NCBI GenBank assembly: GCA_903825245.1
Contig: CAIJZX010000012.1
Location: 76,059-140,058, forward strand
From: Candidatus Kerfeldbacteria bacterium
GTDB lineage: Bacteria > Patescibacteriota > Patescibacteriia > SBBC01 > CAIJZX01
Length of the DNA: 64,000 nucleotides
Reading direction: 5' to 3'
Each line of letters opens with the position of its first letter. Positions within the stretch are counted from its first letter, which is position 1. The position numbers and the translations under genes were made by a program. Below are positions 7,275 through 57,727 of this stretch, in pieces. The notes beneath the pieces were generated by a model. It was not told the origin of the DNA and did not search any database. It worked only from the letters and a program-made list of their open reading frames with translations.

Positions 7275-7402
7275 GCCGTCTCCTCGGTTTGGGTAAAAAG
7301 GGCAACGGGAAAAACAATGCCCGCACCTTACATCCGGTAAACTGCCCTGTCAAGATTGTCAACTACTATAGCAGGCGCCCTGTTCGGCGCCCACATGGAC
7401 AG

Positions 7403-7708
7403 TTACGACCGCAGATACTTCTTTCCATACTCCGCCATCGCCCGCTCAATAATCTTCAACCCCTCGCCTTTTCGCGTGGCATGATACACACCGTTGTTCG
7501 ATTTTCGTATCATGCCTTTTGACGACAGCTTCTGTAATTTCAACGTCAGCGTTCGTGAGGAAATATCTTCCAGCCAATCCTCGAGCTCCGAAAAACGCTT
7601 CGGTGATTCGGTCAGCGCCCGCATAATCAACATCGTCCAGGTATCGGACAATACTTCGGCCGTGCCCGTGATTGGGCATGTATGCTTGGTCGATGGCTGT
7701 TTTTCCAT
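7403..7708 (-). CDS. HxlR-family transcriptional regulator
   Basis: CPI...LSDTWTMLIMRAL...KRFSELE...ISSRTLTLKLQKL. Confidence 0.9.
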   Translation of the reverse strand: MEKQPSTKHTCPITGTAEVLSDTWTMLIMRALTESPKRFSELEDWLEDISSRTLTLKLQKLSSKGMIRKSNNGVYHATRKGEGLKIIERAMAEYGKKYLRS

Positions 7709-7733
7709 AGGCGGCAGTATAGCACGGGATATC

Positions 7734-7790
7734 ATACTTTACAAAGTAAAGTATTAGGAGTATGCTGTGGATAACTTTACATTGTAAAGT
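7734..7790. promoter_or_regulatory. Two palindromic operators (ACTTTAC-N3-GTAAAGT) between divergent HxlR and LUD genes
   Basis: ATACTTTAC-AAA-GTAAAGTAT (7734-7754) and ACTTTAC-ATT-GTAAAGT (7774-7790). Confidence 0.75.
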
Positions 7791-7822
7791 ACTTACTCAC
7801 TACGAGTCACCCCATATAACGT

Positions 7823-8440
7823 ATGTCCTACACCGACCTCGCCACTACTGATCAGTTGAATGCTACCGTTGTCACCCTGACCGCCAATGGTTTTTTACCG
7901 GCTATCATCGCAACAAAAGAAGAAGCTCTGAAAAAAATCAAAACCTTGATACCGCCAAATGCTTCGGTGATGAACGGCGCTTCAAAAACGCTCGAAGAAA
8001 TTGGTTTCATCGATTACTTAAAAGCCGGACAACACGGTTGGAAGAATCTTCATGCCGACATCCTCGCCGAAACCGACAAGGCGAAACAGGGCGATTTACG
8101 AAAACAAGCATTGCTGGCTGATTTCTATCTCGGTAGCGTTCACGCCCTGACCGAAACCGGAGAAATGGTCATTGCATCGAATACCGGCAGTCAACTCCCC
8201 CATCTCGTCTTCACGTCGCCGAATCTCATTCTCGTCGTGGGTGCGCAAAAAATCGTACCAGACATGGGCACGGCATTCGATCGGCTCACCACGCACGTGG
8301 TGCCGTTAGAGAACGCCCGGATGCAAGCTACGCGCGGCGTCAATACGCAGAACTCTAAAACGCTTATCCTGCACAAGGAAAACCCGATGATGGGTCGCAA
8401 GGTGCACGTGCTCATCGTCAAAGAATCGCTCGGGTTTTAG
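7823..8440 (+). CDS. LUD domain protein (YkgG/LutC-like)
   Basis: GASKTLEEIG, ADFYLGSVHALTETGE, VVGAQKIV. Confidence 0.85.
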   Translation: MSYTDLATTDQLNATVVTLTANGFLPAIIATKEEALKKIKTLIPPNASVMNGASKTLEEIGFIDYLKAGQHGWKNLHADILAETDKAKQGDLRKQALLADFYLGSVHALTETGEMVIASNTGSQLPHLVFTSPNLILVVGAQKIVPDMGTAFDRLTTHVVPLENARMQATRGVNTQNSKTLILHKENPMMGRKVHVLIVKESLGF

Positions 8441-8634
8441 AGGCCTCGGTACGCAAATACCAATCACTCATAAACGCATCGAGGGTGGTTTTGGTATTTG
8501 ACAGCAATTTCCTAAAGGAGTAGTACAAAGATAACCATTCAGATTGGTAGCTCCTGTCACTCATACCATCGAGTGGCATATTCATACGCCCCTTCCACCA
8601 AGAGTCGTTCACCATTAAAGCATCGGAGCTTATC

Positions 8635-8826
8635 GTGGACACCGATGTCAGTAAAGTACAGGGGTTCTGTAGCGTTTGTGAGCAGTACCATGGGGTCACC
8701 ATTCGGGCTGCATACGAAGCTCTCCCCGAGGGACACGAGGAACGGTACCTGACGGTTCAGCACAACCATCAGGGTAGCGAGTGCCTCGGATCTCAGCGCA
8801 TGCCGGAATTCGTGGTCAAGTCCTGA
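8635..8826 (+). CDS. Small Cys/His-containing (Zn-ribbon-like) orphan protein
   Basis: GGAG SD at 8625, GTG start, CSVC...H...C, own promoter (TTGACA 8498) and terminator. Confidence 0.6.
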   Translation: MDTDVSKVQGFCSVCEQYHGVTIRAAYEALPEGHEERYLTVQHNHQGSECLGSQRMPEFVVKS

Positions 8827-8840
8827 ATTCCAGCACGTCA

Positions 8841-8872
8841 CCCGCGGAAGCATTTCCGTGGGATTTTTCTTT
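8841..8872 (+). terminator. Intrinsic terminator
   Basis: CCCGCGGAA-GCAT-TTCCGTGGG followed by ATTTTTCTTT. Confidence 0.75.
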
Positions 8873-8925
8873 TATAAATCCACAGTATGCGGGCAATAAA
8901 TATTCAGAAGTGCTACACTTGTGAC

Positions 8926-12411: not shown

Positions 12412-12537
12412 GCATTGAACCGGTTTTCAACGGTAGATGATTGACTGGATCAACGGAATTTGGTAGGGTTTTTATGTTAACGACCTTTCAGCAATTGTGC
12501 TGTGGGGCCGCTCTTTGACATCTCAAAGGAGGTTCAC

Positions 12538-14016
12538 ATGTCTCGTTCATCGTTCAGTCTGCTGTGCTTCTGCGTACTTCTCTTCGCCCAAAGTGTTCAC
12601 GCGCAAATTTCACCTTGGCCGTCAATTCAACACGACCAGTACCACACCGGTCGGACTTCAGTCACTGGACCGGCAACCGCGGACACTTCGTGGACGCGCC
12701 TGCTCGACGGCGACATACTGGGCGCAAATACCGCACCGGTCATCAGTACCACTGGCGCGATCTTGATCGGAACAACCCAGGGTCATGTCTTTGCCTACGA
12801 CGCATCAGGCCAGCGCCTGTGGAAGATCACCCTGCCCGGCACAATCAGTGCCCCGCTCGGCGTCGCGGATAATGGCCGAATCCTGGTGTCCACGGAAAAT
12901 GATTCATGCTACGTCCTTGATCCGAACGGCCTGGTACTCTCGCGACTCTTCATCGGTTTCGCCAACAGCGGACCGACCATGGTCGGCGATATCGCCTACC
13001 TATCTGGGAACTATAACGGCGCCGGTTTCGTTTTCAAGATCGATATGGATGTCCTGTGGTATACCGCGCAATCGAATAATCTATGGCAGATTGATCGATC
13101 GTCGCCCATCGTCACTCTTGGCGGGCAGGTCGTCGTCGGCACCACCGAAAACGTTTTCCCGTACAACTCGTCGGGTCATATTTCGGTGCTCGATGCGAAC
13201 TGCCAGGAGATCTGCTCCTACAACGTCGGATTTTTCAATGGCCGAGGTGTCCGCAGTTCAGTTTCACAAACCTCTACCGGTCGTATTGTTTGCGGTAGCG
13301 TCGGCGACAACGCATCACTGTACGGCGACGGCGCCTTCTGCAACAGTGACGTTACCTGCGGCGGTTGCGGTACAGGCGCCGGTCACTACTTCAGTTCTCC
13401 GGCGTTGTTAAGTAATGATACCGTCGTCCTCGGCACAAAGAATGGTCTCAGCCTGCGCGATCCGGCGGGGTGCGGACAAACCGCGCTCTATCCGACCGGA
13501 CCGATCCTCAATCCTTCACCGGTCGTCGACGGTCAAAACACGATCTACGTCGGCGACGATAATGGCAAGCTCTGGGCTTGGTCGTCTGCCGGCGTCAATA
13601 TCTGGAACCGTCAGCTCAACGCCGCCGCTACCGGCATCGCTATCGATGTACACGGCAACTTGTTCGTCGCCAGTACGCTCGGGCGATTGTACTGTTTCCG
13701 TGGTCCGAATCAGACTGCAGTAAATAGCGAACCTCAACCAGCGCACCTGCAACTGTCCGTTTGGCCAAATCCAGCGACCACGCAAACAACGTTGCAGCTG
13801 TCACCGCCGAAAGACGCTTTCGTCCACTGTGCCGTCTATGACCTGAGCGGCCGTCCAGTTATCACCCTTCTCGATGAACTTGTCACCGGTGGAACTCGAT
13901 CGATCACCTGGAATGGTCGGAATGAGCACGGCCAAAAAATCCCTTCCGGCATGTATTGGATTACTGCCCGTGCCGGCAACCAACGCATGACCAAAACCGT
14001 CGTCCTCCTTCCGTAG
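12538..14016 (+). CDS. Secreted PQQ-like beta-propeller protein with C-terminal FlgD-Ig/T9SS-CTD-like domain
   Basis: Signal peptide, WP..QHD..HTG, SSP repeats; tail VWPNP...YDLSGRPV..L...WNGRNEHGQKIPSGMYWI; AAGGAGGT SD. Confidence 0.8.
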   Translation: MSRSSFSLLCFCVLLFAQSVHAQISPWPSIQHDQYHTGRTSVTGPATADTSWTRLLDGDILGANTAPVISTTGAILIGTTQGHVFAYDASGQRLWKITLPGTISAPLGVADNGRILVSTENDSCYVLDPNGLVLSRLFIGFANSGPTMVGDIAYLSGNYNGAGFVFKIDMDVLWYTAQSNNLWQIDRSSPIVTLGGQVVVGTTENVFPYNSSGHISVLDANCQEICSYNVGFFNGRGVRSSVSQTSTGRIVCGSVGDNASLYGDGAFCNSDVTCGGCGTGAGHYFSSPALLSNDTVVLGTKNGLSLRDPAGCGQTALYPTGPILNPSPVVDGQNTIYVGDDNGKLWAWSSAGVNIWNRQLNAAATGIAIDVHGNLFVASTLGRLYCFRGPNQTAVNSEPQPAHLQLSVWPNPATTQTTLQLSPPKDAFVHCAVYDLSGRPVITLLDELVTGGTRSITWNGRNEHGQKIPSGMYWITARAGNQRMTKTVVLLP

Positions 14017-44249: not shown

Positions 44250-44779
44250 ACGGTTTTTCCTCGTCGTGCGGCCGCTTGTTCGCGTGTGCGCAGTTTCTGC
44301 AAAGCTTCCATTAAAGCATAGACGTTGTTAATCTTGTTCGATGATCCAAGAATTTTGCTGACCACGTTCTTGACGCCGGCCAGTTCCATAATCGCGCGAA
44401 CTGGTCCGCCGGCGATAACGCCACTTCCTTTCGGCGCTGGTTTCAACATCAAGTAGGCGCCGCCGTGCTTCATGAAAATAGTGTGCGGAATTGTATCATC
44501 AACGATCGGCACGCGAATCATTGTCTTTTTTGCCGCCGTAACTGCTTTTTGGATAGCATCAGAAACGTCCGATCCTTTAGCAATACCTAAACCAACCCGT
44601 CCTTTTTGGTCGCCAATAGCAACTGTCGCACGGAAACGCATGCGCTTACCGCCAGCGACCACGCGTGTCACGCGCGCTAAGTCGATGGTCTTTTGTTCAA
44701 ATTCACGTGGTTCACGCGGGCCACTCCGACGTCCTCGTCGTTGTCCGCCACCGCGCTGTTGTCCTGAAGGTAATGCCAT
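44246..44779 (-). CDS. rpsE: 30S ribosomal protein uS5
   Basis: RVTRVVAGGKRMRF, G.GVIAGG. Confidence 0.97.
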   Translation of the reverse strand: MALPSGQQRGGGQRRGRRSGPREPREFEQKTIDLARVTRVVAGGKRMRFRATVAIGDQKGRVGLGIAKGSDVSDAIQKAVTAAKKTMIRVPIVDDTIPHTIFMKHGGAYLMLKPAPKGSGVIAGGPVRAIMELAGVKNVVSKILGSSNKINNVYALMEALQKLRTREQAAARRGKTV

Positions 44780-44783
44780 AGAT

Positions 44784-45134
44784 TTAGAATGTCAGTCCGC
44801 CGGCTCGTGCGGCATCAGCTAAGGCCTTAATTCGGCCGTGGTATTGAAATCCACCGCGATCAAAAACGACGACGGTGATATTCTTTTCTTTGGCCTTGGC
44901 GGCAATCGCCGTACCAACGGCGGTCGCTAATTCCGTCTTTGTGCCTTTGGTCTTTAACGATCGATCCGTGACCGCTGCCAACGTCTTTCCTAAGGTATCA
45001 TCAACCAACTGCGCTTCAATATGCGCTAAACTCCGGAAAACAACGAGTCGCGGACGCGCCGACGTACCAGACATACGCGATCGGATACGAGCATGGCGAT
45101 TGGTTCGAGCGGATGATTGTGGTCGTGATGGCAT
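44784..45134 (-). CDS. rplR: 50S ribosomal protein uL18
   Basis: [21 protein letters not shown]. Confidence 0.97.
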
Positions 45135-45142
45135 ATGCGTGA

Positions 45143-45694
45143 TTACTTGGCGCCAGCGGCTTTAACAACTTTACCGGCCTTACGGCGAATGACTTCATCA
45201 ATATACTTGATGCCTTTGCCTTTGTACGGCTCCGGCTTCTTCATGCGGCGGATGGTGGCCGCGGTTTCGCCAACCAATTGCTTATCAATACCGCTGATGG
45301 TAACAATATTTTTATCAACCGCGATCGTCGTTCCTTCCGGAATCGGAAAATCAATCGGATGGGAAAAACCGAGGTTCAAATGTAAACTCTTTCCGGTCAC
45401 TGCGGCCTTAAAACCGACACCGTTAATTTCCAATTTCTTTTCGTACCCGGTGGTCACACCAATAACCATGTTCGCTACCAACATTCGTGTTAATCCCCAC
45501 AGCGCCCGATCTGATTGCAAATCCGGATTGGAAACCGTTATGGTCAAGATGTCGTTCTCTTGGTGCACCTGAACGTGCGAGTGCGCCGTTAACGACAGGG
45601 CACCTTTTGGTCCTTTGACATCGACAGCTTGTCCGCTAAGCGTCACGGTGACGCCGGTCGGAATAGTGATAGGGAGTTTACCGATACGGGACAT
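45143..45694 (-). CDS. rplF: 50S ribosomal protein uL6
   Basis: [16 protein letters not shown]. Confidence 0.97.
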
Positions 45695-45700
45695 ACAGTT

Positions 45701-46084
45701 TTAGAATATTTCGCAAATAACTTCGCCGCCGAGTTTCGCTTTGCGCGCTTCGGCGCTGGTCATCAATCCTTTCGGCGTGGAAATGATTGCCGTACCGAGG
45801 TTATTGACGACATTCGGAAGATCGTGACGATTGACGTAGACGCGGCGACCCGGCTTGCTGATTCGCTTCAGGTCATTGATGACCGGCGTATTTGCTTCGT
45901 ACTTCAATAAAATTTTCAACTTGGTATTCTGTTCCAAAACCGCCAAGCCGGTTATCCAGCCTTCGCGCTCCAACACTGACGCTAACGCATACTTCAATTT
46001 TGCGTACGGCAGGATGACTTCGCGCTGGCCAGCGAGCTGGGCATTGCGAATTCGAGTGAGCATGTCTGCGATTGGATCGGTCAT
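45701..46084 (-). CDS. rpsH: 30S ribosomal protein uS8
   Basis: MTDPIADMLTRIRNA, SKPGRRVY. Confidence 0.97.
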   Translation of the reverse strand: MTDPIADMLTRIRNAQLAGQREVILPYAKLKYALASVLEREGWITGLAVLEQNTKLKILLKYEANTPVINDLKRISKPGRRVYVNRHDLPNVVNNLGTAIISTPKGLMTSAEARKAKLGGEVICEIF

Positions 46085-46097
46085 AGAGGGCAGTTCG

Positions 46098-46283
46098 TTA
46101 CCAAGAAGCTTTGTGGACGCCGGGCACGTCACCTTTATTGGCTAATTCCCGGAAACAGATACGGCACAGTTCAAAATCTCGAATGTATCCGCGTTTGCGG
46201 CCGCAGCGCCAGCATCGTCGAACGCGTCGCGTCGAAAATTTCGGTTTGCGCTTCGACTTTGCAATTTGTGCGGACGTAGCCAT
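46098..46283 (-). CDS. rpsN: 30S ribosomal protein uS14 (zinc-binding type)
   Basis: RCWRCGR...LCRICFRE. Confidence 0.96.
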
Positions 46284-46285
46284 AG

Positions 46286-46831
46286 TTATATCGTGCTAAA
46301 AGGAAATCCCAAGTGTTTAAGTAAACTTTGTGCTAAAGGTTGGTCGTTTGTCGAAGTAACGATCGTAACCTCTAAACCGTGCAGGTGTTCGATTTCGTCG
46401 CTGCGGATTTCTGGAAAGACAATGTTTTCTTTAATGCCGATGGTAATCGAACCACTCTTACCCATCGAGGTCGCGGGAATACCGTGGAAGTCGCGGACGC
46501 GAGCTAAGGTGACATTCACGAACTTATCGAGGAATTCCCACATTCGTTCGCCGCGGAGGGTAACACTAGCGCCGATAACCATGCCCTGGCGGAGTTTGAA
46601 CGCAGCCACTGACTTCTTGGCCTTCGTTTTAACCGGATGTTGGCCGGAAATTCGTTCCAAGGTCAGCATGACGGTCTCTTCGTGTTTTGGATCCTTGAGG
46701 TGTTTACCAAAACCAACATTGAGCACAATTTTTTTGATCGTCGGCACAGCTAAGGTATTCGTTAATCCATATTGCTTTTTCAGCTCAGGAACAACGGTTT
46801 GACGGTAGAGTTGGTGGAGTCGAGAAATCAT
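46286..46831 (-). CDS. rplE: 50S ribosomal protein uL5
   Basis: ISGQ.P..TKAKKS..FKLR, RVRDF.G, FPEI. Confidence 0.97.
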
Positions 46832-46834
46832 GGG

Positions 46835-47152
46835 TTACGAGAGAGGTTCTTGAGAGACGATTGCTTTACGAACTTTTTTATCACCGACCATGGCTGATCC
46901 GACGCGGGTCGGCTTTCCCGATTTTGGATCAATCAACATCACATTCGAAAGATGGATTGGGCCATTGAACTGCACTCGTTGGCCGGATTCTTTTTCCTGC
47001 CGCGCCCGGACATTCTTGGTCATTTGGTTGACACCTTCAACCACGACGCGCCATTGCCCTGGGAATACCTGTAAGACCTTCCCCTTCTTGCCTTTGTCTT
47101 TGCCGCTCAGGATCAGGACTTGGTCGCCGGTTTTGATGCGTGGAGGTTTCAT
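46835..47152 (-). CDS. rplX: 50S ribosomal protein uL24
   Basis: GD.V.ILSGKDKGKKG, PIHLSNV. Confidence 0.96.
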   Translation of the reverse strand: MKPPRIKTGDQVLILSGKDKGKKGKVLQVFPGQWRVVVEGVNQMTKNVRARQEKESGQRVQFNGPIHLSNVMLIDPKSGKPTRVGSAMVGDKKVRKAIVSQEPLS

Positions 47153-47156
47153 AGCG

Positions 47157-47528
47157 TTACAATACTTCAGGTGCTAGTGATACAATCTTAGTAAAACCTT
47201 TAGCTTTTAATTCACGAGCTACCGGTCCAAAAATACGCGTGCCTTTTGGTTCTTTTGTCTTCGGGTCGACGATCACACCAGCATTTTCGCTGAAACGAAT
47301 GTAACTACCATCGCTGCGTCGGTACTCTTTTCGCTGACGGACAATAACCAAGTGAACCACGTCGCCTTTCTTGACCATGCCGTGTGGCGTGGCTTCTTTG
47401 ACTGAACCGGTAACGATGTCCCCGAGTTGGCCGTAGCGCTTCTTGTACCCGCCCCAAACACGGAAGACGGCGACGCGTTTGGCGCCTGTGTTATCGGCCG
47501 GTTTGAGAATGGATCGAAGTTGAATCAT
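47157..47528 (-). CDS. rplN: 50S ribosomal protein uL14
   Basis: [26 protein letters not shown]. Confidence 0.97.
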
Positions 47529-47529
47529 A

Positions 47530-47775
47530 TTAGAGTTTCTTGATCACGCGCCATCGCTTGGTTGATGACATCGGACGGGTTTCTTCAATCATGACTTTGT
47601 CGCCGGTATGATAGGCTCCCGATTCGTCATGAGCGGCGAAACGCTTGCTGGTTTTCAATTTTTTTCCGTACAGCGGATGGCTCAACGTACGGTCGACGCG
47701 GACGACAACCGTCTTCGTCATTTTGTCGGAGACGACGGTGCCGGTGAGTTGTCGACGTTGCGGTAGTGTAGACAT
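47530..47775 (-). CDS. rpsQ: 30S ribosomal protein uS17
   Basis: [21 protein letters not shown]. Confidence 0.97.
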
Positions 47776-47776
47776 A

Positions 47777-48007
47777 TTACGTAGTTGGAGTTGTTACCTT
47801 CGTTTCCTGTTGAGACGCGGTTATACCATCTTGCGTGCGCTTGGTCAAGAGACGGGCGATATCGCGCTTAATTTCTCGGATTTCCCGGACATCTTTGTGC
47901 TGTCCTTGCGCAACTTTGAATCGTCGATCGCGAAGCTGTTGATTTTTTTCCTGCAACAAACGATCAAGCTCCGTTTTCGATTTTTGCGTTATCTCTTTCC
48001 AATCCAT
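47777..48007 (-). CDS. rpmC: 50S ribosomal protein uL29
   Basis: Position in cluster; IREIKRDIARLLT. Confidence 0.93.
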   Translation of the reverse strand: MDWKEITQKSKTELDRLLQEKNQQLRDRRFKVAQGQHKDVREIREIKRDIARLLTKRTQDGITASQQETKVTTPTT

Positions 48008-48011
48008 AGCG

Positions 48012-48422
48012 TTACTGTTCTTTCTTGATGAACTTCGTCTTAACTGGTAGCTTATAGGCTGCGAGGCGCATGGCTTGACGAGCCACATCTTCCTTCACAC
48101 CATCCATTTCGAAGAGCATAGTTCCTGGTTTCACCACAGTCACATAGTGATCGACTGCGCCCTTACCGCCACCCATACGAACTTCATTACCTTTGATGGT
48201 GACCGGCTTGTCGGGAAAGACGCGAATCCAGACCTTACCACCACGTTGAATGAAGCGGGTCATGGCTCGACGAGCAGCTTCTAATTGTCGCGCCGTCACC
48301 CATCGCGGCTCCAACGCTTTCAGGCCGAACGTGCCGAAGCTCAATTCAAGTTTATCGGTCGCCTTTCCACGGATTCGTCCGCGATGCCATTTGCGATGTT
48401 TTACTTTCTTCGGGGTCAACAT
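48012..48422 (-). CDS. rplP: 50S ribosomal protein uL16
   Basis: [24 protein letters not shown]. Confidence 0.97.
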
Positions 48423-48425
48423 AAA

Positions 48426-49091
48426 TTATTTGAGAGGAGATTCCTTCTTATCTTTGGCGAACACTTCACCGGTATACACCCAAACTTTGATACCAATTTT
48501 CCCGTAGGTGGTATGCGCTTCGCCACGACCATAATCGATACCGGCGCGAATCGTCTGTAGTGGTAGGCTGCCATTCGATAACATTTCGGTACGAGCGATT
48601 TCTGCGCCGTTCAGGCGTCCAGCTAACATGACTTTGACTCCTTTTGCACCAGCCTGCATCGTCTGTTCAATCGTGTTCTTCATAATCCGACGGAACGGTA
48701 AGCGTTTTTCAATTTGTTCCGCAATGTTACCGACGATGATTTGGGCTGACAGTTCCGGATTTTCCACTTCTTGAACGTTCAATTTAACGTTCACCTTTCC
48801 CTGCCCCATATGGAGTCGTCGGACGGCTTGGCGGAGAGTTTCAATACCTTGACCACCACGTCCAATGACGACGCCGGGTTTCGATGTATGTACCGTGACG
48901 GTAACGTTTTGGAGAGAGCGTTCAATATCAATGCGCGCGATACCAGCATTGTGCAGTTTTCCTAATAGGTATTTTCGAATTTGCACATCTTGTCGTAACA
49001 AGGTGGCATAATTTCGGGCACTAAACCAACGGGAATTATAGGCGCCGGTAACGCTCAGACGGAAACTTTTCGGATGGACTTTTTGACCCAT
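48426..49091 (-). CDS. rpsC: 30S ribosomal protein uS3
   Basis: MGQKVHP, GRLNGAEIAR. Confidence 0.97.
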   Translation of the reverse strand: MGQKVHPKSFRLSVTGAYNSRWFSARNYATLLRQDVQIRKYLLGKLHNAGIARIDIERSLQNVTVTVHTSKPGVVIGRGGQGIETLRQAVRRLHMGQGKVNVKLNVQEVENPELSAQIIVGNIAEQIEKRLPFRRIMKNTIEQTMQAGAKGVKVMLAGRLNGAEIARTEMLSNGSLPLQTIRAGIDYGRGEAHTTYGKIGIKVWVYTGEVFAKDKKESPLK

Positions 49092-49095
49092 AGTA

Positions 49096-49632
49096 TTATT
49101 CCTTTCCCTGACGGCGGACCGTCACATCTTGAGCATCACGCGCCTTCGACTTGGCTGTGGACGATTTCTTGGCAACAACTGATTTCGACTTTTTCGGAAC
49201 TTCAATTCCCGAGGTGGCTGGCGCGCCGGCAACTTTTTCCGCAGCAATACTGATGGTATTCGCCTTTTCTACCTTCTTCTTGCCTTTCGGCGCCGAGGGA
49301 ACAATTTCATCCAAAATAATTGTAATATGCGTCATTTTCTTTAAAATCTCGGCAGCGCGGCCGAAGGCTCGAGGCTGCCAGCGTTTCAAACGTGGACCTT
49401 CGTTAGCCACAATCGACTTAATACGTAAATTGCTACGTTCCAGTTGAAAATTATGTTCGGCATTGGCGACTGCTGAATTCAGCAATTTCAACACCGGCAA
49501 AGATGAACCTTTTTGCAAAACACTCAGTTGATCAACCGCCTGTTCGACGGTCAACCCTCGTACCAGGTTTACAACTAAGCGAACTTTACGAGGAGCGATG
49601 CGGAGATAACGAAGATGAGCGCGGACTTCCAT
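49096..49632 (-). CDS. rplV: 50S ribosomal protein uL22 with basic C-terminal extension
   Basis: RIAPRKVRLV, SAVANA, PRAFGRA. Confidence 0.96.
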   Translation of the reverse strand: MEVRAHLRYLRIAPRKVRLVVNLVRGLTVEQAVDQLSVLQKGSSLPVLKLLNSAVANAEHNFQLERSNLRIKSIVANEGPRLKRWQPRAFGRAAEILKKMTHITIILDEIVPSAPKGKKKVEKANTISIAAEKVAGAPATSGIEVPKKSKSVVAKKSSTAKSKARDAQDVTVRRQGKE

Positions 49633-49635
49633 GGA

Positions 49636-49959
49636 TTATTTCTTAGGTGCTGGAGCGGCTGCGGCCGGTTTCTCTTGAGCGGCAGTTTCAATTTCTTTCT
49701 GCATTTTACCGCCGTGTCGAATAAATTTCTTGGTTGGTGAAAATTCACCGAGTTTATGACCGACCATATTTTCGACGACGTAGACCGGAAGGTGGACTTT
49801 CCCATTGTGGACGCCGAAAGTAAAACCAACCATCTGCGGCGTGATAACAGAATCGCGCGACCAGGTTTTGATAATTGTCTTATCGCCAATCTTCAACTTC
49901 CCGAGCTTCTTCAGCAGGTTTGGATCGACGAACGGTGCTTTTTTCAGTGATCGTCCCAT
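49636..49959 (-). CDS. rpsS: 30S ribosomal protein uS19
   Basis: RSLKK.PF, KTWSR, GHKLGEF. Confidence 0.97.
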
Positions 49960-49963
49960 ACAA

Positions 49964-50800
49964 TTATGCGCGTCGGCGACTAATAATTAATCGAGCTGAA
50001 TACTTCTTCTTATCGCGGGTGCGAACACCTAAGGCGTGCTTGCCCCACGGCGTCTTCGGATACTTCATACCAATCGGTTGGTTTCCTTCGCCGCCACCGT
50101 GCGGGTGATCAACCGGGTTCATGGCTTTACCGCGGACACTCGGACGGCGGTTCTTCCAACGCATGCGTCCGGCTTTGCCCCAACGAATATTCCCGTGATC
50201 CATGTTCGACATCTGGCCGATTGAGGCCATGCAGGTCTTCATGACTTTGCGAATTTCTCCTGATGGCATTTTCAACGAGACGTAATCGCCTTCGAAGGAC
50301 ATAATGGTAGCGACCGTTCCAGCCGAGCGGACAATAGCTCCGCCGCGTCCCGGCGATAATTCAATATTGTGGATCGGGATACCGGTCGGAATGAATTCCA
50401 TAGCGGTGCGGTTGCCGGTAGCGATTTCTACCGCTTTCGGCGAACTGACGACGATCGCTCCGACAGCTAATCCAGTTGGCGCGAGGATGTATCGTTTTTC
50501 ATGATCCGCGTATTCAATCAACGCCACGTGCGCTGAACGATTCGGATCGTATTGAATGCCGAGAACGGTCGCCGGCAAATCGTAGCGTTCCTGTTTAAAA
50601 TCAACTTGGCGATAGAATCGTTTGTTACCCGCGCCACGGTGGCGAACAGTGATTTTTCCTGAAAAGTTACGTCCGGCATCTTGCTTGATCGTCTTGAGAA
50701 GTGCTTTGTGCGGTGTTTGGACACCAACCAGCTCAGCATAGTCGTTGACTGACGACTTGCGGCGACCTGGCGATGTTGGACGATAGATGCGGACTCCCAT
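49964..50800 (-). CDS. rplB: 50S ribosomal protein uL2
   Basis: [21 protein letters not shown]. Confidence 0.98.
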
Positions 50801-50808
50801 AGGTGTAG

Positions 50809-51303
50809 TTAAACGCTGACGACGTCAATAGTTTTTCCAGCTGGCAGGGTGACAATCATTTTTTTCCGTTTTGCGGTGCGACCCATCATGCGACCGAAGC
50901 GGACTTCTTTGCCCAGCATGGTGATCGAATTCACGTTGATCGGCATGACGCCGTAGAGGTGATGGACCGCTTGGCGGACATCTGCCTTCGTAGCAGTCGT
51001 TGCGACTTCAAATGTGTACTGTGATTGAGCGCCACCGCGGGTGGACTTTTCGGTGACTACTGCGCGAATAAGCGCGCGCTTGATCATTTCTGAAGCTGGA
51101 TTGCCTTTAGCGACCGGGGCCGTTTTCGGTTCCGACTTGGCTTTCTTGGCGACAACTGGCTCTTTCGCGGCGCCGACTTCGGCGAACGCTTTCTTTTCCG
51201 CGTCTTTAACTTTATCCGCCTTCGTCGCTTTGACCACGCCGCGCTTCGGGCCAGCTGTCTGGTCCTTACCTTTTGTACTCGTGAAGCGATCAAAGAGACC
51301 CAT
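50809..51303 (-). CDS. rplW: 50S ribosomal protein uL23 with about 70-aa N-terminal extension
   Basis: VTEKS, YTFEV, KKMIVTL in the C-terminal half; position between rplD and rplB. Confidence 0.93.
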   Translation of the reverse strand: MGLFDRFTSTKGKDQTAGPKRGVVKATKADKVKDAEKKAFAEVGAAKEPVVAKKAKSEPKTAPVAKGNPASEMIKRALIRAVVTEKSTRGGAQSQYTFEVATTATKADVRQAVHHLYGVMPINVNSITMLGKEVRFGRMMGRTAKRKKMIVTLPAGKTIDVVSV

Positions 51304-51307
51304 ACAA

Positions 51308-51934
51308 TTATTTAGCGTACGTTGAGCGAATAATATCTAGCGCCGGTTTCACAATCAGTAATTGCTTGACGTTGACAACATCGTAGGTATTCAAGCTGTC
51401 GGCCCGAATGAAGGTCACACCTGGAACATTGCGACCAGATTTAATTAATGACATGCTGGTGGTCGGCACGATAACCAATGCTTTTTTCGTGACGGACAAC
51501 TTTTTCAACATGGTCGCGAAATCTTTCGTTTTCGGCGCCGCCATTATCATATCATCAACCACGGTAATCGCTGCACCTTCAGCTTTATCGCTGAGTGACA
51601 TCAGTAACGCTTTGCGCTTGGCCGAAATATTCATTTTCAATTCGAAATTGCGGTTCTTACGTGGTCCGAAGATAACGCCGCCGCCTTTCCATTGCGGTGA
51701 ACGAATAGAACCATGTCGAGCGCGACCGGTTCCTTTTTGCTTCCACGGTTTCTTACCGCCGCCGCGAACTTCACCCTTCGTTTTGGTGTGAGCAATTGCG
51801 ACACGTCGGTTGGCTAAGTGCGTGATGATCGCTTGTTCAATCAAACCGGCGTTCGGCTTGATGCCAAAGACTTTGGCGTCGAGTTCGACGTCGCCGATGA
51901 CCTCACCAGTTTGGTTGTAGAGCTTGGTGTTCAT
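51308..51934 (-). CDS. rplD: 50S ribosomal protein uL4
   Basis: KPWKQKGTGRARHGS. Confidence 0.97.
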   Translation of the reverse strand: MNTKLYNQTGEVIGDVELDAKVFGIKPNAGLIEQAIITHLANRRVAIAHTKTKGEVRGGGKKPWKQKGTGRARHGSIRSPQWKGGGVIFGPRKNRNFELKMNISAKRKALLMSLSDKAEGAAITVVDDMIMAAPKTKDFATMLKKLSVTKKALVIVPTTSMSLIKSGRNVPGVTFIRADSLNTYDVVNVKQLLIVKPALDIIRSTYAK

Positions 51935-52539
51935 GCGCGTGCTTGGACAATCACCATTCCGTTACGTGCGCCAGGAACTGCGCCGGAAATCCAGAGTTCA
52001 TTCTTTTCTGTATCGACGGCCACGATTTTCAAACCGATGACGGTAACTTTTGCGTTGCCGAGTCGGCCGGCCATGCGCGTGCCTTTCATGACGTGCTGTG
52101 GGAATGTTGCACCGATCGAACCAGGCGCGCGAAGGTTATCTTTGTGACCATGGGAAGCCGGACCGCCGCGGAAGTGGTGTCGCTTAACGACACCAGCAAA
52201 ACCACGGCCTTTCGAGGTCGCGGTCACTTGGACTTTATCACCAACGGCGAACGAAGAAACATCAACCTTCGCGCCGCGTTCTAACACTTCCGTTGACTTC
52301 GTTTCGCGAACGTAGCGGAAGAGACCGAGTTCTTTCCATTGTCCCTGTTGTTGCTTCGCCACACGGTTCTTTTTCTTGGTGCCGGCAGCGACGCTCATCG
52401 TTTTCATCTCCACGCCATCACTCGACCGGACGTTGGTAATAACGTTCGGTTCAGCTTTGACGACCGTCACCGGCACGACGGTTCCGTCGTCCTGGAAGAC
52501 TTGTGTCATCTGCAATTTGTGACCGATGATGAATTTCAT
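51931..52539 (-). CDS. rplC: 50S ribosomal protein uL3
   Basis: [23 protein letters not shown]. Confidence 0.97.
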
Positions 52540-52544
52540 TGGGA

Positions 52545-52714
52545 AACTGATTGATGAAGAGAAAAGCGCTCGCGGCGGCCAACTGGCCGCCGCGAGCGGC
52601 GATCCTGTTAGCTACCGTTGTCCTGGGATTACTTCTGCTGGTACCGGTCTTGTCATCCCTGGAACTGATGGCTGGATTGTAGAGTTAAGTTATGCCCTTC
52701 GACGGGCTCAGGAC
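52545..52714 (-). promoter_or_regulatory. Structured rpsJ-rplC intergenic leader with a 14-bp GC hairpin and a REP-like motif
   Basis: CGCTCGCGGCGGCC-AACT-GGCCGCCGCGAGCG (52567-98) followed by CTTTTCTCTT on - strand; GTCCTGAGCCCGTCGAAGGGC (52694-714). Confidence 0.55.
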
Positions 52715-53064
52715 TACGACTTAATCTCGATGTCCACGCCCGCCGGAAGATTCAGGTTCGTCAGGGCATCCACCGTTTTCGGCGTCGGATCGATGATATC
52801 GACCAGGCGCTTGTGCGTCCGCATTTCGTACTGCTCTCGCGAATTCTTGTGAGCGAAAGCCGAACGAATCACCGTGTACTGACTCCGTTCCGTCGGCAAC
52901 GGCACCGGACCTTTGATTTTTGCGCCGGTACGAATCGCCGTATCAATGATCGTCTTGGTCGACTGATCGATGATCTTGTGATCGTAAGCGCGAATCTTGA
53001 TCCGAAGTCGTTGGTGGACTTCTTCGTCGGGAGTAGCGGTGAGAGGAACGTGTGGTTCAGGCAT
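52714..53064 (-). CDS. rpsJ: 30S ribosomal protein uS10 (NusE)
   Basis: [28 protein letters not shown]. Confidence 0.97.
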
Positions 53065-53091
53065 GGAAAGGGCGAGAGATTGTCGTGGGTA

Positions 53092-54276
53092 TTACTTGAT
53101 GATCTTCGTTACCACGCCGGCGCCGACTGTGTGGCCACCTTCGCGAATGGCGAAGCGTTGCTGTTCTTCAAGTGCGACTGGAGTGATGAGCTTGATGACG
53201 AATTTCATCTGGTCCCCAGGCATTACCATTTCGGTACCAGCCGGTAATTCGATTTCGCCAGTCACGTCCGTGGTGCGAATGTAGAATTGCGGTTTGTAGC
53301 CTTTGAAGAACGGTGTATGTCGTCCACCTTCTTCTTTGGAGAGGACGATGACCTCAGCTTCAAACTCGCTGTGCGGGGTAACTGTACCTGGCTTAGCTAG
53401 CACTTGACCGCGTTCGACATCTTCTTTCTTCGTACCGCGGAGGAGTAAACCAGCATTATCGCCAGCCACACCAGAATCCAATTGCTTGTTGAACATTTCG
53501 ATACCAGTCACGACGGACTTGGCGGTCGGTTTCAGACCGACGATTTCCACTTCGTCATTAATCTTGATTTCACCGCGTTCGATACGACCCGTAACAACGG
53601 TACCGCGACCTTCAATCGAGAAGATATCTTCAATTGGCATCAAGAACGGTTTATCGGTCGCGCGCTTCGGTTCCGGAATGTATTCATCGAGCGTCTTCAT
53701 GAGCTCCATGATTTTTTCCTGGTAGGCCGGATCGCCTTCCAAAGCCTTCAATGCTGAACCGCGGATGATCGGGGTGGTATCGCCTGGGAAATCATACTTC
53801 TTTAACAAATCGCGGATTTCGACTTCGACGAGGTCAATCAATTCAGCATCATCAACCGTATCGCACTTGTTCAAGAAGACGACGATGTATGGTACACCGA
53901 CCTGCTTGGCCAAGAGAATGTGTTCGCGGGTCTGCGGCATCGGACCGTCAGCGGCCGAAACAACGAGAATTGCACCGTCCATTTGGGCAGCACCGGTAAT
54001 CATGTTCTTGACGTAGTCGGCGTGTCCTGGACAGTCGACGTGTGCGTAGTGACGATTCGCTGTTTCATACTCAACGTGGGCCGTAGCAATCGTAATACCG
54101 CGAGCCTTTTCTTCCGGTGCGTTATCGATATCATCAACGCCTTTCGTTTGCGCGATGAATCCCTTATCGGCTAATGTCTTGAGAATAGCGGCCGTTAATG
54201 TGGTCTTACCATGGTCGACGTGACCGATAGTACCAACGTTGACGTGCGGCTTACTGCGATCAAATTTTTCTGCCAT
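53092..54276 (-). CDS. tuf: Elongation factor Tu
   Basis: [23 protein letters not shown]; start MAEKF. Confidence 0.99.
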
Positions 54277-54611
54277 AGACTCGTTTGCGCTAGTTAGAAG
54301 AAAAAGGTTACAGAAATGCCTGGCGATTATAGCAGGGCTTGATAAACTTGGCAAGTGTCTACCCTTCAACCACAAGATCTAAACGAGGAAATTTTCAATT
54401 TTGGCTAATGTTAGCCTTTTTTTAATTTTTCCTGAGTTTTTTCCAAAAAATACACTCCATTTTCCGTTATACGCCTATATTTTAGCTAAAATTAGCCATT
54501 TTTTTATCCACAGGCTGTGGACTAACTTTTATTGAACTAACCATCAAAAATTGACTAATTCCATAAAAAGCCTAGTGTTCATGGGCGCTGATCTTTGACA
54601 ATGGAGGTTCG

Positions 54612-54989
54612 ATGCATCAACTGACGCCAAAGGACGCATCTGTACTTGCGATCGTGGTTGAGAACCCGAAGATGTCCGAGCGGCAATATCAAAGGCTGCT
54701 CACCCACGTCACTGACCCGGAACTACGGGAGCTCATCGGTGCTATTCGGGACAAGGATCTCGAAAAGCCTTTGACCGATCGTACGTGGCAATTTATCCCT
54801 GTTATACAAGATATTGAGGCTTGGCGTACCGCCAACGAAGGTCGACGCGGTCCAAACAACCGAACGCAGGAGGACGCAATGTATGGATTGGTAGGTGCAC
54901 TGATACTTCTTGGCGTCGGGTGGGGCGGTTTTAAACTGCTGACGTGGTCACTCGACAGACGTATTCGTCGGGTCAAGAAGCGGGTATAG
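54612..54989 (+). CDS. Orphan protein; internal in-frame SD-led start at 54879 gives a 36-aa TM peptide
   Basis: GGAGGT SD at 54603; AGGAGG before ATG 54879. Confidence 0.6.
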   Translation: MHQLTPKDASVLAIVVENPKMSERQYQRLLTHVTDPELRELIGAIRDKDLEKPLTDRTWQFIPVIQDIEAWRTANEGRRGPNNRTQEDAMYGLVGALILLGVGWGGFKLLTWSLDRRIRRVKKRV

Positions 54990-54999
54990 GAGAATCGTG

Positions 55000-55152
55000 A
55001 TGAGCACGAGAAGGTCTCTGAGAAGGTACCGTTCACTCGCGCCACGGAGATTACGGCGAGCTACTAGTAAAGCAGAGCTGGAAAGAATGATGCTCAAGCA
55101 CTTTCCATGGATGTCGATGATATCGAAGTCGACCCCCAACAAGAGCCAGTAG
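55000..55152 (+). CDS. Tiny Arg-rich orphan protein (50 aa)
   Basis: AGGAGA SD; manual translation MSTRRSLRRYRSLAPRRLRRATSK... Confidence 0.5.
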   Translation: MSTRRSLRRYRSLAPRRLRRATSKAELERMMLKHFPWMSMISKSTPNKSQ

Positions 55153-55175
55153 CTCAAGGGAGACGAGGAAACGCT

Positions 55176-55421
55176 ATGAACAAGCGCTCAGCTATCCCGA
55201 CTCCGCACGGACTTCGGCTGAAACGCGGCAAGAACGGAATCTTCACTGCACCCGATCCCGGTCCGGAAGCTCAACGTGAGGCAGTGAAACGAGCTTTTCC
55301 TGACACGAATGTGGATCCGCCTGAATCCAACGACAACACGATCATCTGCGATGAGTGCGGATGGCGTGTCGAGAAGGAACGAACCTGCTCGAACTGCGGC
55401 AAGACTATGTCGTGTCCATAG
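55176..55421 (+). CDS. Small C-terminal Zn-ribbon protein
   Basis: GAGG SD; CDECG...CSNCG. Confidence 0.6.
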   Translation: MNKRSAIPTPHGLRLKRGKNGIFTAPDPGPEAQREAVKRAFPDTNVDPPESNDNTIICDECGWRVEKERTCSNCGKTMSCP

Positions 55422-55430
55422 GAGGAAGCT

Positions 55431-55631
55431 GTGAGAACCTTCATCAGGCTGTTACCTGTGTTCAGCCTGTTCGTGATCATTTGCGGCCTGGTATTCGCCT
55501 TCACATATCCGGAAAGACTAAATTTTGGACGAATCGTCGCTTGGGCGTTTCTCAGCTATTTCCCGATCTCAGAAACTGTCTCCAAGTGGAGCGATCGTTT
55601 CATAACAAAGTCCGGATCGGCGAACTTGTGA
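55431..55631 (+). CDS. Small two-TM protein
   Basis: AGGAGG SD, GTG start. Confidence 0.6.
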   Translation: MRTFIRLLPVFSLFVIICGLVFAFTYPERLNFGRIVAWAFLSYFPISETVSKWSDRFITKSGSANL

Positions 55632-55671
55632 CCACCGCCAGTAGCAGTTTGTGCCCTCAAGAGGAGGCTCC

Positions 55672-55827
55672 ATGCCGAAAGCAGGCGTAGTAGTATCCGA
55701 GCAGATGGTGGCAAGAATGTTCTGCGGCGGAATCATTGGCGCACTGGTTGCGTCATTCCTGGGTCCCGAAGCCATCTTCGTGGGCGCGATCTTCGGTGCC
55801 GCGGCAGGTTTCGCAGTCACTCCGTGA
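55672..55827 (+). CDS. Tiny glycine-zipper membrane peptide (51 aa)
   Basis: GAGGAGG SD; manual translation ...GGIIGALVASFLGPEAIFVGAIFGAAAGF... Confidence 0.6.
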   Translation: MPKAGVVVSEQMVARMFCGGIIGALVASFLGPEAIFVGAIFGAAAGFAVTP

Positions 55828-55850
55828 TCAACTCAGAAGTCGTGGGAGGT

Positions 55851-55976
55851 ATGATGGAATTCCTCGCTGCAGTTGCTACCGTCTGTCTCTTGACCGCAGT
55901 CATGACGCTCGGGATACTGCGCTATGGCCACATCGCCTTCCAGGTCATGGGTCGTATCATGGGTATCGCGAAGTAG
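55851..55976 (+). CDS. Tiny single-TM peptide (about 40 aa)
   Basis: GGGAGGT SD; MMEFLAAVATVCLLTAVMTLGILRYG... Confidence 0.55.
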   Translation: MMEFLAAVATVCLLTAVMTLGILRYGHIAFQVMGRIMGIAK

Positions 55977-56012
55977 TCTGAACTACAACGTTACACACAA
56001 ACGTACAACCAC

Positions 56013-56042
56013 CCCGCTAGCACATCGCTCGCGGTTTTTTTA
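56013..56042 (+). terminator. Terminator of the small-ORF operon
   Basis: CCGC-TAGC...GCT-CGCGG hairpin followed by a T-run. Confidence 0.55.
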
Positions 56043-56092
56043 TGTAAGAAAAAACCGCATATCACCAGGACATACGGTTCGGTACAAAGAGC

Positions 56093-57115
56093 TTAGCTGA
56101 GCTGAGCGAGAAGCCCCTGAATCAGCGGAACGTCGCTGTCATTACCCAGACGACGATCGATAGCCAAAGACTGCTGGTACAACGCCCGGGCTTGTTGAGT
56201 CTCTCCTCCGCGAGCGTGGAGCGCTTCGGCGCGGCGGAAACATGACAAGGACTGGAGTGCGAGGTACGCTTGATTACTCGACGATTCCCCTAGCAATTCT
56301 TCGACAATGGAAAGCGATTTTTCGAAAGCGTCATCCGCCTCGTCAAATCGGTTCATCATCCGCAACAGCAAACCCATTTCTTCGTAGGCGGTGGCGATAT
56401 TCTGCCGGTGTTTATTCGTCACCATTCGAAACGATCCGCCAAAACTATTGATGTACAGTTTGCCGCCCATACTCTTGACGGTCATCATTTTGCCGCAAAA
56501 CGGACATCCACCCATTCCGCCGGAACCGGGATCGACCGGCACTTCTCCAGACATCCCGCAGTTAGGACAACCAATCCGCGCAGTACCGCGATACGAAACA
56601 TTGACCTCATCAAGATCAATGATTTTGGTACGCGTGCTGGTAGTTGTGCCTTTTTCCTGAGCATCAATGGACCGTTTGAACATGCGCAGAGCTTGCTGCG
56701 CCGCCGGAAAATTTTCCAACACCTGTGCATCACTACCCATCCGAACACCAGGCCGGTAATGTCGAGCGGTCCAGAATGTGGTTCTGAGGATGGCGCGGTT
56801 GTAGTCATACAAACCCGCCGCCAACACCACGTGACGGAAGAAATACATCCACACGATAGGCGGCCCGAAGAGAATCGCGCTGGTCACCCACAAATGCTGA
56901 TTGTTCAGGTAGTGGAATTCCAGGTGAAACTGCTTTTGCAGTAGACCGGCCGCCAACAACGTCAGCATGCCAACCATACTTGCTCCGACTGCCCGAGGGT
57001 TCAGTGGCCGCTGCAGACCCATTTCCCACAGTCCGTATCGCGCCCATTCGGTGGTCAAGACGCAGTTACAGACCAGTAAAATCGCCAACACGGCATATTC
57101 CACGCTCATAGTCAT
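56093..57115 (-). CDS. Membrane protein with Zn-ribbon and TPR repeats
   Basis: 3 TM helices, CPNCG...CPFCG, ATAYEEMGLLL..MNRFDEA...FEKSL TPR. Confidence 0.75.
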   Translation of the reverse strand: MTMSVEYAVLAILLVCNCVLTTEWARYGLWEMGLQRPLNPRAVGASMVGMLTLLAAGLLQKQFHLEFHYLNNQHLWVTSAILFGPPIVWMYFFRHVVLAAGLYDYNRAILRTTFWTARHYRPGVRMGSDAQVLENFPAAQQALRMFKRSIDAQEKGTTTSTRTKIIDLDEVNVSYRGTARIGCPNCGMSGEVPVDPGSGGMGGCPFCGKMMTVKSMGGKLYINSFGGSFRMVTNKHRQNIATAYEEMGLLLRMMNRFDEADDAFEKSLSIVEELLGESSSNQAYLALQSLSCFRRAEALHARGGETQQARALYQQSLAIDRRLGNDSDVPLIQGLLAQLS

Positions 57116-57118
57116 CCC

Positions 57119-57553
57119 CTATTCCCTAATGGCTTCAACAAACGAGAACATCCGGCTCATCGCAAAATTCGCGAAGAACATGATAAGGGTGACGCCCACC
57201 GTGATAAAAATCCGACCGATTGACGTCTCGGAAAGAAAGTGTCCTTGCGTCGCATACGCGGTGATCGTGCACACGATCCAACACAATCCGCCGACACTCA
57301 TCGAGAAGTGGCCACGCGGAAAGGTAGCGTCGTTATTCAAACCGACAAACAACCCAATAGCCAATCCGGGAATCGTGCCGTACCGAAGCGTCTGCTGCCA
57401 GATAAACGCCTGAACACCATCAGGCAACATCAACTCCGGCGACGTAATCGGTCCGCAGATGAGGAATTTTGCCGGAAGCAGGTAGTACAAAGAACCGAGC
57501 AAGACACCGAGGATGGCACCAGTCAGAACTGAAAGGCCGAGATTGTATCGCAT
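57119..57553 (-). CDS. Orphan four-TM membrane protein
   Basis: GGAGGG SD before MRYNLG; TTGACA-18-TAGGAT promoter. Confidence 0.65.
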   Translation of the reverse strand: MRYNLGLSVLTGAILGVLLGSLYYLLPAKFLICGPITSPELMLPDGVQAFIWQQTLRYGTIPGLAIGLFVGLNNDATFPRGHFSMSVGGLCWIVCTITAYATQGHFLSETSIGRIFITVGVTLIMFFANFAMSRMFSFVEAIRE

Positions 57554-57727
57554 ACACCCTCCATTGATATGGATAGGCTCCGGGACTTGGAACAAATTGT
57601 CAAACAACCGTACTGAATTGCGCCGTATCCTAGCCGTTTTTTCTATACGATGTCAAGTTGCGAACGACGCACCAGCCACAAGAAAAAAACACCCAATTGA
57701 GTGTCACCTATCATAGTTACTTGTTTA

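Follow-up and report, generated by a model that had tools for sequence, protein, structure and literature searches.

A boxA-like leader site on Shine-Dalgarno-led orphan genes of a Kerfeldbacteria-like Patescibacterium, and its possible use for Nus control

Why should eight dispersed transcription units, most of them headed by small orphan genes, be written with the same promoter, the same leader motif and a Shine-Dalgarno (SD) sequence in a cell whose core genes start without one? The question arises in a window of 64,000 nucleotides, the whole stretch of DNA analysed here (C12:76059-140058 of the source genome, G000), from a Kerfeldbacteria-like Patescibacterium whose assembly of 1.30 Mb in 42 contigs is rated 100% complete; the named DnaB relatives are mostly Patescibacteria, and one of the proteins encoded by the class of genes discussed below has its closest named homologue in Ca. 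Kerfeldbacteria. Little gene regulation is generally ascribed to Patescibacteria, and orphan genes make up much of each of their genomes. A first-pass annotation of the window had proposed that the eight loci belong to a coherent second expression class, either dependent on Nus factors, or captured from phage early modules, or else written for the machinery of a host cell. We can confirm that the promoter-box-SD pattern is real and genome-wide and that it repeats in held-out genomes, and the places where the box recurs suggest a genuine NusB:S10 site that serves the cell itself.

The gene set that supports this view consists of 1272 genes, called with our own dicodon model, in which SD starts were given a bonus; 174 of them have an obvious SD, a count that, owing to this bonus, may be somewhat inflated among short orphans. 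A strong SD is taken here as 5 nt or more, and a box as a score of at least 7 bits with a matrix derived from the 91 strong-SD leaders of G000. Intergenic promoters of the -35 type (TTGAC-N16-18-TAnnnT) are followed within 150 nt by an SD-led open reading frame (ORF) in 106 of 269 cases (39%), the corresponding figures being 9.3% for 5000 intergenic positions drawn at random and 27 of 318 for extended -10 sites. De novo expectation maximisation on the 91 leaders yields NGYWCHTTNMMA, with a log-likelihood of 193 against 38-46 in five composition-matched shuffles, G2, C5, T7 and T8 of the motif being 90-95% fixed. The box is present in 13 of 163 SD-less -35 leaders, in 9 of 264 extended -10 leaders, and, in the controls of the SD-led leaders, in 6 of 91 upstream and 2 of 91 antisense segments; it is present in 57 of the 91 SD-led -35 leaders themselves, a figure that is partly circular, and to that extent tells against us, because the matrix was trained on these leaders. 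In the held-out genome G007 it occurs in 21 of 45 SD-led -35 leaders versus 2 of 73, and in 80 held-out DnaB loci in 17 of 46 versus 16 of 233. Its median position is 14.5 nt past the -10, generally within about 25 nt of it. The claimed co-occurrence of promoter, boxA and SD, checked over the whole genome and with shuffled controls, is thus specific to SD-led -35 leaders and stands above the shuffles.

Within the window, the shared TTGAC-N16-18-TA promoters are present at all eight loci named in the first pass; the first-pass pattern occurs 12 times in the window, eight of these occurrences being the named loci, and the -10 at locus 8635 ends in C. The boxA-like motif fares even better than claimed, since the genome-derived matrix finds a site above the 7-bit threshold in every one of the eight leaders (7.5-12.8 bits), including a previously unlisted one at 8587-8598. 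The assertion of GGAG(G) SDs has to be softened: six are strong, while loci 8635 and 31857 have merely GGAG. The units, the box on rpsJ and the contrasting core block are as follows.

6534..7353, minus strand: unit 1, promoter 7353-7325, box TGCCCTTTTTAC at 7304-7293, SD AGGAG, 246-aa HD-domain ORFan.
8498..8826, plus strand: unit 2, promoter 8498-8526, box CGCCCCTTCCAC at 8587-8598, weak SD GGAG, 63-aa ORF at 8635-8826.
12441..14016, plus strand: unit 3, promoter 12441-12469, box CGCTCTTTGACA at 12509-12520, SD AGGAGG, 492-aa protein.
31790..32174, plus strand: unit 4, promoter 31790-31818, box AGCTCCTTTTAC at 31831-31842, weak SD GGAG, 105-aa ORFan.
34345..34844, minus strand: unit 5, promoter 34844-34816, box TGTTCCTTCTAC at 34794-34783, SD AGGAGG, 140-aa ORFan.
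34871..35166, minus strand: unit 6, promoter 35166-35138, box AGTCCTTTTCCA at 35120-35109, SD GGAGGT, 75-aa membrane-type ORFan.
54551..56050, plus strand: unit 7, promoter 54551-54578, box TGATCTTTGACA at 54589-54600, SD GGAGGT, 125-aa ORFan first.
56093..57656, minus strand: unit 8, promoter 57656-57627, box GGTTGTTTGACA at 57609-57598, SD GGAGG.
53063..53074, minus strand: box CGCCCTTTCCAT, overlapping the ATG of rpsJ (S10 = NusE).
43764..54276, minus strand: contrast set, the tuf, S10-spc ribosomal protein genes and secY region, without SD.

In this contrast block none of the 21 called genes (one call being probably spurious) has an SD at its start, just as the first pass had noted for a few of them. 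Is the promoter of the units then of a foreign type? It is not, since the rRNA genes and six tRNA genes carry the same -35/-10 form. The unit promoters, sigma-70-like in form, share their -35 and spacer with SD-less and stable-RNA promoters, and differ from them in the third -10 base alone (G in 52 of 91, versus 38 of 163 SD-less). The genome encodes two short sigma-70-region-2 proteins besides the long one; a regulon of an alternative sigma factor was considered and rejected, as rRNA, tRNA and SD-less genes have this promoter form in common. An extended -10 placed 5-9 nt before the ATG is found in 49 of 543 core genes and in none of 80 units.

What might read the box? Lying past the promoter and on the strand that is transcribed, it agrees with boxA: the published consensus GYTCTTTAANA, as it appears in the part of 10.1101/091223 consulted, fits the motif, and the B. 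subtilis consensus AUGAUCUUUGAAA, from a portion of PMC13753749, closely resembles the site at 54589. G000 encodes nusB, nusE (rpsJ), nusA and nusG, its NusB aligning to solved NusB structures (E 6e-25), and has no Rho_RNA_bind match that would betray Rho. A box of the form GWHCNTTGACAA stands in the rRNA leader of 7 of 8 family genomes, and in all eight a second rRNA-leader box (4.4-11.5 bits) lies 6-11 nt before a terminator-like hairpin and U-tract; the copies in the rRNA leader of G000 score just 6.9 and 4.5 bits. The box on rpsJ has the top score among 579 SD-less core genes, and reaches 7 bits or more in 16 of the 26 genomes parsed (3 of 29 loci were unparsed), as against 1 of 26 for the reversed control and 1 of 27 for rplC; by rank, it is there in 14 of 16 genomes within the order and in 2 of 10 beyond. 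In the sections of 10.1101/091223 used here, boxA is placed before rpsJ in three genera, with usually one autoregulated Nus gene per species. Because the box is found on rRNA leaders and on the start of rpsJ, the units are likely to be controlled, as one block, by the Nus proteins of the cell itself. Of the options first offered for a coherent class, it is thus the Nus one that gains ground, with nusB, nusA and nusG encoded; the accompanying question about the 16S tail is answered by an intact anti-SD (CACCTCCTT).

Stable RNA loci yielded further observations. The rRNA leader at G000:C9:13315-13853 and those of relatives (L087-L103) have a conserved structure of 440-700 nt, with the box, an AACAG...CTGTT hairpin with U-tract and the second box; Rfam gave no match in the rRNA leaders of 10 loci. 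The 16S spacer (G000:C9:15685-16017) holds tRNA-Ile, tRNA-Val and, between them, an unannotated, tRNA-like interrupted stretch. At G000:C16:48756 a -35 promoter precedes an RNA that we take to resemble RNase P RNA, with a box-like GCCTCATTGACA at the RNA start. In the window, an AT-richer island (20587-29600) runs from a tRNA-Lys and includes a serine recombinase and a LOOT RNA at 22568-22688 (Rfam, 79 bits), some 20 nt downstream of a box-like TGCTCATTTCTAC; the main text of PMC5737381 does not describe LOOT RNA.

A more trivial origin of the motif has to be weighed at this point, namely that it is a mere pyrimidine-rich translation enhancer, acting for example through bS1, or a stray second -35. 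The leaders are indeed G-poor and rich in C and T before the SD, and TTGACA occurs within some boxes. Against this stand the nearly fixed positions of the motif and its distance from the shuffles, the fact that in G000 box, SD and ATG combine in 47 matches versus 6 when the box is reversed, and the conservation of the site on the SD-less rpsJ and on untranslated rRNA leaders, so that we regard this account as very improbable.

How far, then, does the arrangement extend? The promoter with its box is present in all 31 relatives and richest in the source family, although the built-in control of this comparison is weak. Across 151 genomes of the phylum, box, SD and ATG together give 1233 matches versus 661 with the box reversed; the count exceeds the reversed one in 102 genomes, falls below it in 32 and ties in 17, and 15 genomes reach p<0.01, kin among them not being independent. 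A nusB gene is found in 140 of the 151 and Rho in 31, the presence of Rho making no clear difference in box enrichment across these genomes. As a side observation, one family (G037, G065, G090, G114, G137, G159) has no nusB match in six of six genomes, which are 84-93% complete. The pattern is apparently unpublished: a search of the literature, with most subscription journals outside its reach, returned nothing on boxA-tagged SD-led gene classes or on an rpsU SD in Patescibacteria.

The reading that we favour, and to which we would give a probability of about one half, is that the boxA-type leader site loads the cell's own NusB:S10, SD-dependent translation being held down until rRNA synthesis titrates the complex away. 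The units would be transcribed with the housekeeping sigma factor; NusB:S10 would bind the box on the emerging RNA and repress translation there, as at E. coli suhB, where, in the excerpts of 10.1101/091223, repression works at distances of up to 100 nt between boxA and SD, and Rho would not be needed. Autoregulation of rpsJ would set the free NusB:S10 pool, so that the class of units would track the state of ribosome biogenesis. CsrA and the occupancy of bS21 may, more speculatively, act as further gates.

A number of facts weigh against this reading. In 34 of the 91 SD-led leaders with a -35 promoter, the box falls below 7 bits; one position, which is G in 3% of the mRNA boxes, is usually G in the main rRNA box; G002 lacks the rpsJ box, as do 8 of 10 genomes at the class level; and the leaders of nusB reach 7 bits in just 3 of 27. 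In long leaders the box is nearer to the promoter than to the SD, a placement that fits elongation control equally well, and the suhB repression described in the published material proceeds to Rho termination, when Rho is not found here. Finally, the 11 genomes of the phylum without a nusB match show the pattern at 55 versus 29 (a ratio of 1.9) and the 140 with nusB at 1178 versus 632 (1.86), these being small pattern counts, with 10 of the 11 genomes less than 90% complete.

Elongation control deserves to be considered for its own sake. The box might load an rrn-type Nus elongation complex, processive through intrinsic terminators and pauses, and so promote the expression of the units instead of restraining it. 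Its closeness to the -10 and 5'-ward place in long leaders would suit this role, as would the rRNA leaders of all eight family genomes, with their copy ahead of a terminator-like hairpin, the multi-gene nature of some units and the interference of the rrn complex with intrinsic termination, reported in the part of PMC13753749 available to us. However, an attenuator or terminator-like element lies between box and SD in just 1 of 34 long leaders; the units tend to end in terminators (38 of 64) and many are single short genes; Rho is again not found in G000; and a box overlapping the start codon of rpsJ suits repression. We therefore regard this alternative as rather unlikely.

The SD, for its part, links the units to two other genes. 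The rpsU gene (G000:C15:57921-58199) has a strong SD of the AAGGAGGTG type that is kept across the class, whereas the other ribosomal protein genes examined have none; it is strong at 21 of the 26 loci, and three others nearly match. In G000 its pairing with the anti-SD amounts to -14.8 kcal/mol (rank 16 of 1272), with no box and with codons of the core type. The SDs of the units pair with a median of -10.2 kcal/mol and a 5th percentile of -13.8, so that most fall short of the -13 kcal/mol that rpsU passes. Three traits of a gate of the Bacteroidota type are present, to wit an SD-less core, an intact anti-SD and a strong SD on rpsU. According to the sections of PMC9976891 drawn on, bS21-free ribosomes read SD messengers in Bacteroidota, where an extended SD is necessary; as most units have weaker ones, a bS21 gate on the whole SD class is, by this analogy, a possibility. 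Some Parcubacteria are reported to have lost both anti-SD and bS21 (PMC9297842), and some candidate phyla are listed as SD-scarce (PMC10783764).

A canonical csrA is found in 10 of 11 family genomes, in 6 of 7 of the sister family and in none of 12 other genomes at the order and class levels. A -35 promoter lies in its leader at every one of the 12 loci parsed, and the box reaches 7 bits or more in four of them and 6 bits or more in eight; in G000 (C14:210-407) a CCCC...GGGG hairpin lies immediately 5' of its SD. The ANGGA context expected of CsrA was discarded as evidence, the A being present in 52% of 140 SDs and inseparable from anti-SD pairing. Each of the proposed regulators thus bears its own target signal: a box for rpsJ, an SD for rpsU, and promoter, box and SD for csrA. 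This allows us to imagine, as a tentative extension that we would not press, two translation programmes in one cell: an SD-less core read by ordinary ribosomes, and a boxA-tagged, SD-led accessory set (secreted, membrane and nucleotide-salvage proteins) that would be switched as a block by the state of the ribosome, through the titration of NusB:S10, through ribosomes that are free of bS21 and have their anti-SD released, and through CsrA. The tagged leader would then be the entry ticket with which new genes join a programme of growth attached to a host.

Which genes are carried in this way? There are about 80 of them, almost all lineage-restricted. Among the 603 genes with a reciprocal best match in G007, 24 have an SD, and the 44 genes with promoter, box and SD have a homologue there for two and a reciprocal match for none; in the same-genus G002, of which 686 kb out of some 1.1 Mb (62%) was examined, 3 of 80 units have a homologue, versus 391 of 579 core genes. 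In the subsets that lie within fetched regions, a Pfam match was obtained for 12 of 60 units, for 5 of 31 among the other SD orphans and for 33 of 59 SD-less orphans. The cargo had been called mostly orphan and GC-richer. The former is borne out, save for a few genes of known families; of the latter there remains a shift, which is one of codon choice and not of plain GC. Units prefer AAG (0.73), CAG (0.68) and TTC (0.70) and shun TTA (0.03), as compared with 0.36, 0.37, 0.44 and 0.18 in the core, which the SD-less orphans resemble; a codon score computed by leave-one-out comes out positive in 91% of the 67 units, as compared with 4% of the 566 core genes and 12% of the 366 SD-less orphans. G007 shows this offset too, and G002 does so more weakly, in step with each genome. 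Plain GC-rich foreign DNA was accordingly rejected: in G000 four-fold sites are nearly alike (0.63 versus 0.58) when two-fold sites shift, and four-fold-site GC is lower in units than in the core in both G007 and G002. Avoidance of A-runs was likewise dropped as a separate trait, codon choice alone accounting for it. The claim that several units have their own terminators generalises well: a terminator-like element lies 3' of 38 of 64 units, while in sets of 70 core genes and 70 SD-less orphans the numbers are 13 and 14.

The cargo includes prs, some nucleotide metabolism typical of phages, second copies of dUTPase, RNase III and PilT, and SD-led genes with TonB_C, OmpA and type IX secretion system (T9SS)-type tail domains, typical of two-membrane bacteria (L188:4426-4788, L189:3356-5182 and window 12538-14016). 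It is tempting to see in this list genes or messengers delivered to a host cell and written for its sigma-70, Nus factors, Rho and SD-reading ribosomes, all the more as codons are unlike those of the core and boxA usually protects against Rho, not found in this cell. Yet the cell's own rRNA and tRNA promoters, its rRNA and rpsJ boxes and the SDs of rpsU and csrA share the grammar, its anti-SD is intact, G000 encodes tRNAs with C34 for AAG, CAG and GAG, the codons that the units prefer, and the units are scattered singly, with no shared end motif seen in the leader comparisons. Expression in the host, the boldest of the first-pass proposals, is unlikely, and we would lend it little weight.

In the window itself, units 1, 2 and 5 have a hairpin and U-tract 3' of their stop. 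The protein of unit 1 has a weak HD_3 match and HD look-alikes in the Atlas, and a homologue search of 304 candidates returned itself alone; the ORF of unit 2 was without match in Pfam and PHROG searches. Unit 3 encodes (ORF 12538-14016) a PQQ beta-propeller with an FlgD/T9SS-type C-terminal domain. Unit 7 lies within the fusA-tuf interval; its first ORF found no usable match in the Atlas, and further small ORFs with SD-like starts follow at 55000, 55176, 55431, 55672 and 55854, up to a terminator-like end near 56010-56060. Unit 8 has a 144-aa ORFan (57553-57119), then a 340-aa TPR protein. The roughly 5 kb between fusA and tuf (54276-59744) thus contains, besides two SD units, genes for two histidine phosphatases and one of the 2'-5' RNA ligase family. 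Two other regions may be mentioned: 8887-12411 of the window, with two tandem secreted-looking proteins of 570-580 aa, alike at their ends and without clear Pfam family, and G000:C14:34469-39400, where an array of small SD-led ORFs by a recA-like gene has near-identical repeated spacers and one promoter with a box.

Where do the units come from? They might be morons, taken up from unsampled Patescibacteria phages or mobile elements, their promoter, box, SD and codons being the signature of the donor and having no cell-wide role. They are self-contained and wedged among core genes, some of their cargo is phage-typical, and few have a homologue in the part of G002 examined. Three clear pairs of paralogous leaders on unrelated ORFs were found among 101 leaders (alignment scores 138, 65 and 63), and 21 leader pairs align at a score of at least 30 versus one in the control; leaders can thus be copied onto new genes, which recalls PeSL cassettes as presented in the portion of PMC2839356 consulted. 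By the usual features of morons and PeSL, an own promoter and terminator between conserved genes are found, and a phage location or descent and a near-identical repeated cassette are not. PHROG matches were restricted to seven of 60 unit genes and one of nine from the window, all of generic enzyme, regulator or repeat families, and a single viral-contig scan gave no relative. Capture of phage early modules, as once proposed, thus gains no support from these searches, although an old capture may have taken place. Furthermore, the cargo appears to be resident. Orthologues of unit 3 are found in 2 of 11 other family genomes, both in other genera and with different neighbours; synonymous sites are near saturation (pS ~0.7), with a pN of 0.20-0.28 at non-synonymous sites, and the box (10.7 and 5.5 bits) and SD are retained at the same offset, as expected of purifying selection across genera. 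Two cargo proteins have small clusters of homologues at 58-88% identity, followed by a drop to about 35-41%. Recent transfer from a sequenced donor was discarded, none being seen for the three cargo proteins searched, the third of which returned itself alone. With a codon offset that tracks each host genome and a box shared by the resident rpsJ, csrA and rRNA, an origin of this sort, devoid of a role in the cell, is improbable.

If control by NusB:S10 is the correct reading, the Nus factors would act on tens of messengers per genome where a few were known, and this in a cell that lacks Rho, which bears on why NusB has been kept in 140 of 151 genomes when Rho has been kept in 31. A sequence tag on a coherent class of orphans lets such genes be pulled from any genome and tested as a group, and the signal on rpsU makes anti-SD sequestration outside Bacteroidota directly testable.

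It remains to place the pattern among known systems. CsrA/RsmA represses translation at GGA motifs; a canonical CsrA is encoded here and the SD class offers GGA sites, but csrA was not found in the 12 order- and class-level genomes that still show promoter and box. Phage morons and the T4-type PeSL (PMC2839356, in part) are promoter-gene-terminator units between conserved genes, with some duplicated leaders on ORFans here as there; in contrast, our units are chromosomal, most leaders share short motifs and not a repeat, and they have the box and a codon style of the whole class. The autoregulation of bS21 in Bacteroidota (PMC9976891, in part) also combines an SD-less core, an intact anti-SD and a strong, conserved rpsU SD, yet in Flavobacterium johnsoniae, as that extract has it, rpsU alone has an obvious SD, where 174 of 1272 genes do here, with weaker pairing and with a sequestration that is putative. 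The rrn antitermination complex is composed of boxA, NusB:S10, NusA, NusG, SuhB and S4 (PMC13753749, in part); the same motif is found in our 16S leaders and nusB, rpsJ, nusA and nusG are encoded, the differences being a second box before a terminator-like hairpin and the spread of the motif over messengers. The closest parallel is regulation of boxA messengers by NusB/NusE, described for E. coli suhB and Citrobacter CKO_00699 and predicted for rpsJ, prsA and ribH-nusB in what we used of 10.1101/091223 (PMC5725501): the box lies in messenger leaders near the SD, rpsJ carries a site and prs is a target. Where that source counts 0-7 exact mRNA boxA sites per gammaproteobacterial genome, there are here about 80 degenerate ones, on targets that are nearly all lineage-restricted, in a cell with an SD-less core. 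We would therefore file the pattern as a variant of boxA/Nus control of messengers, unusual in its scale and present in a cell for which no Rho was found.

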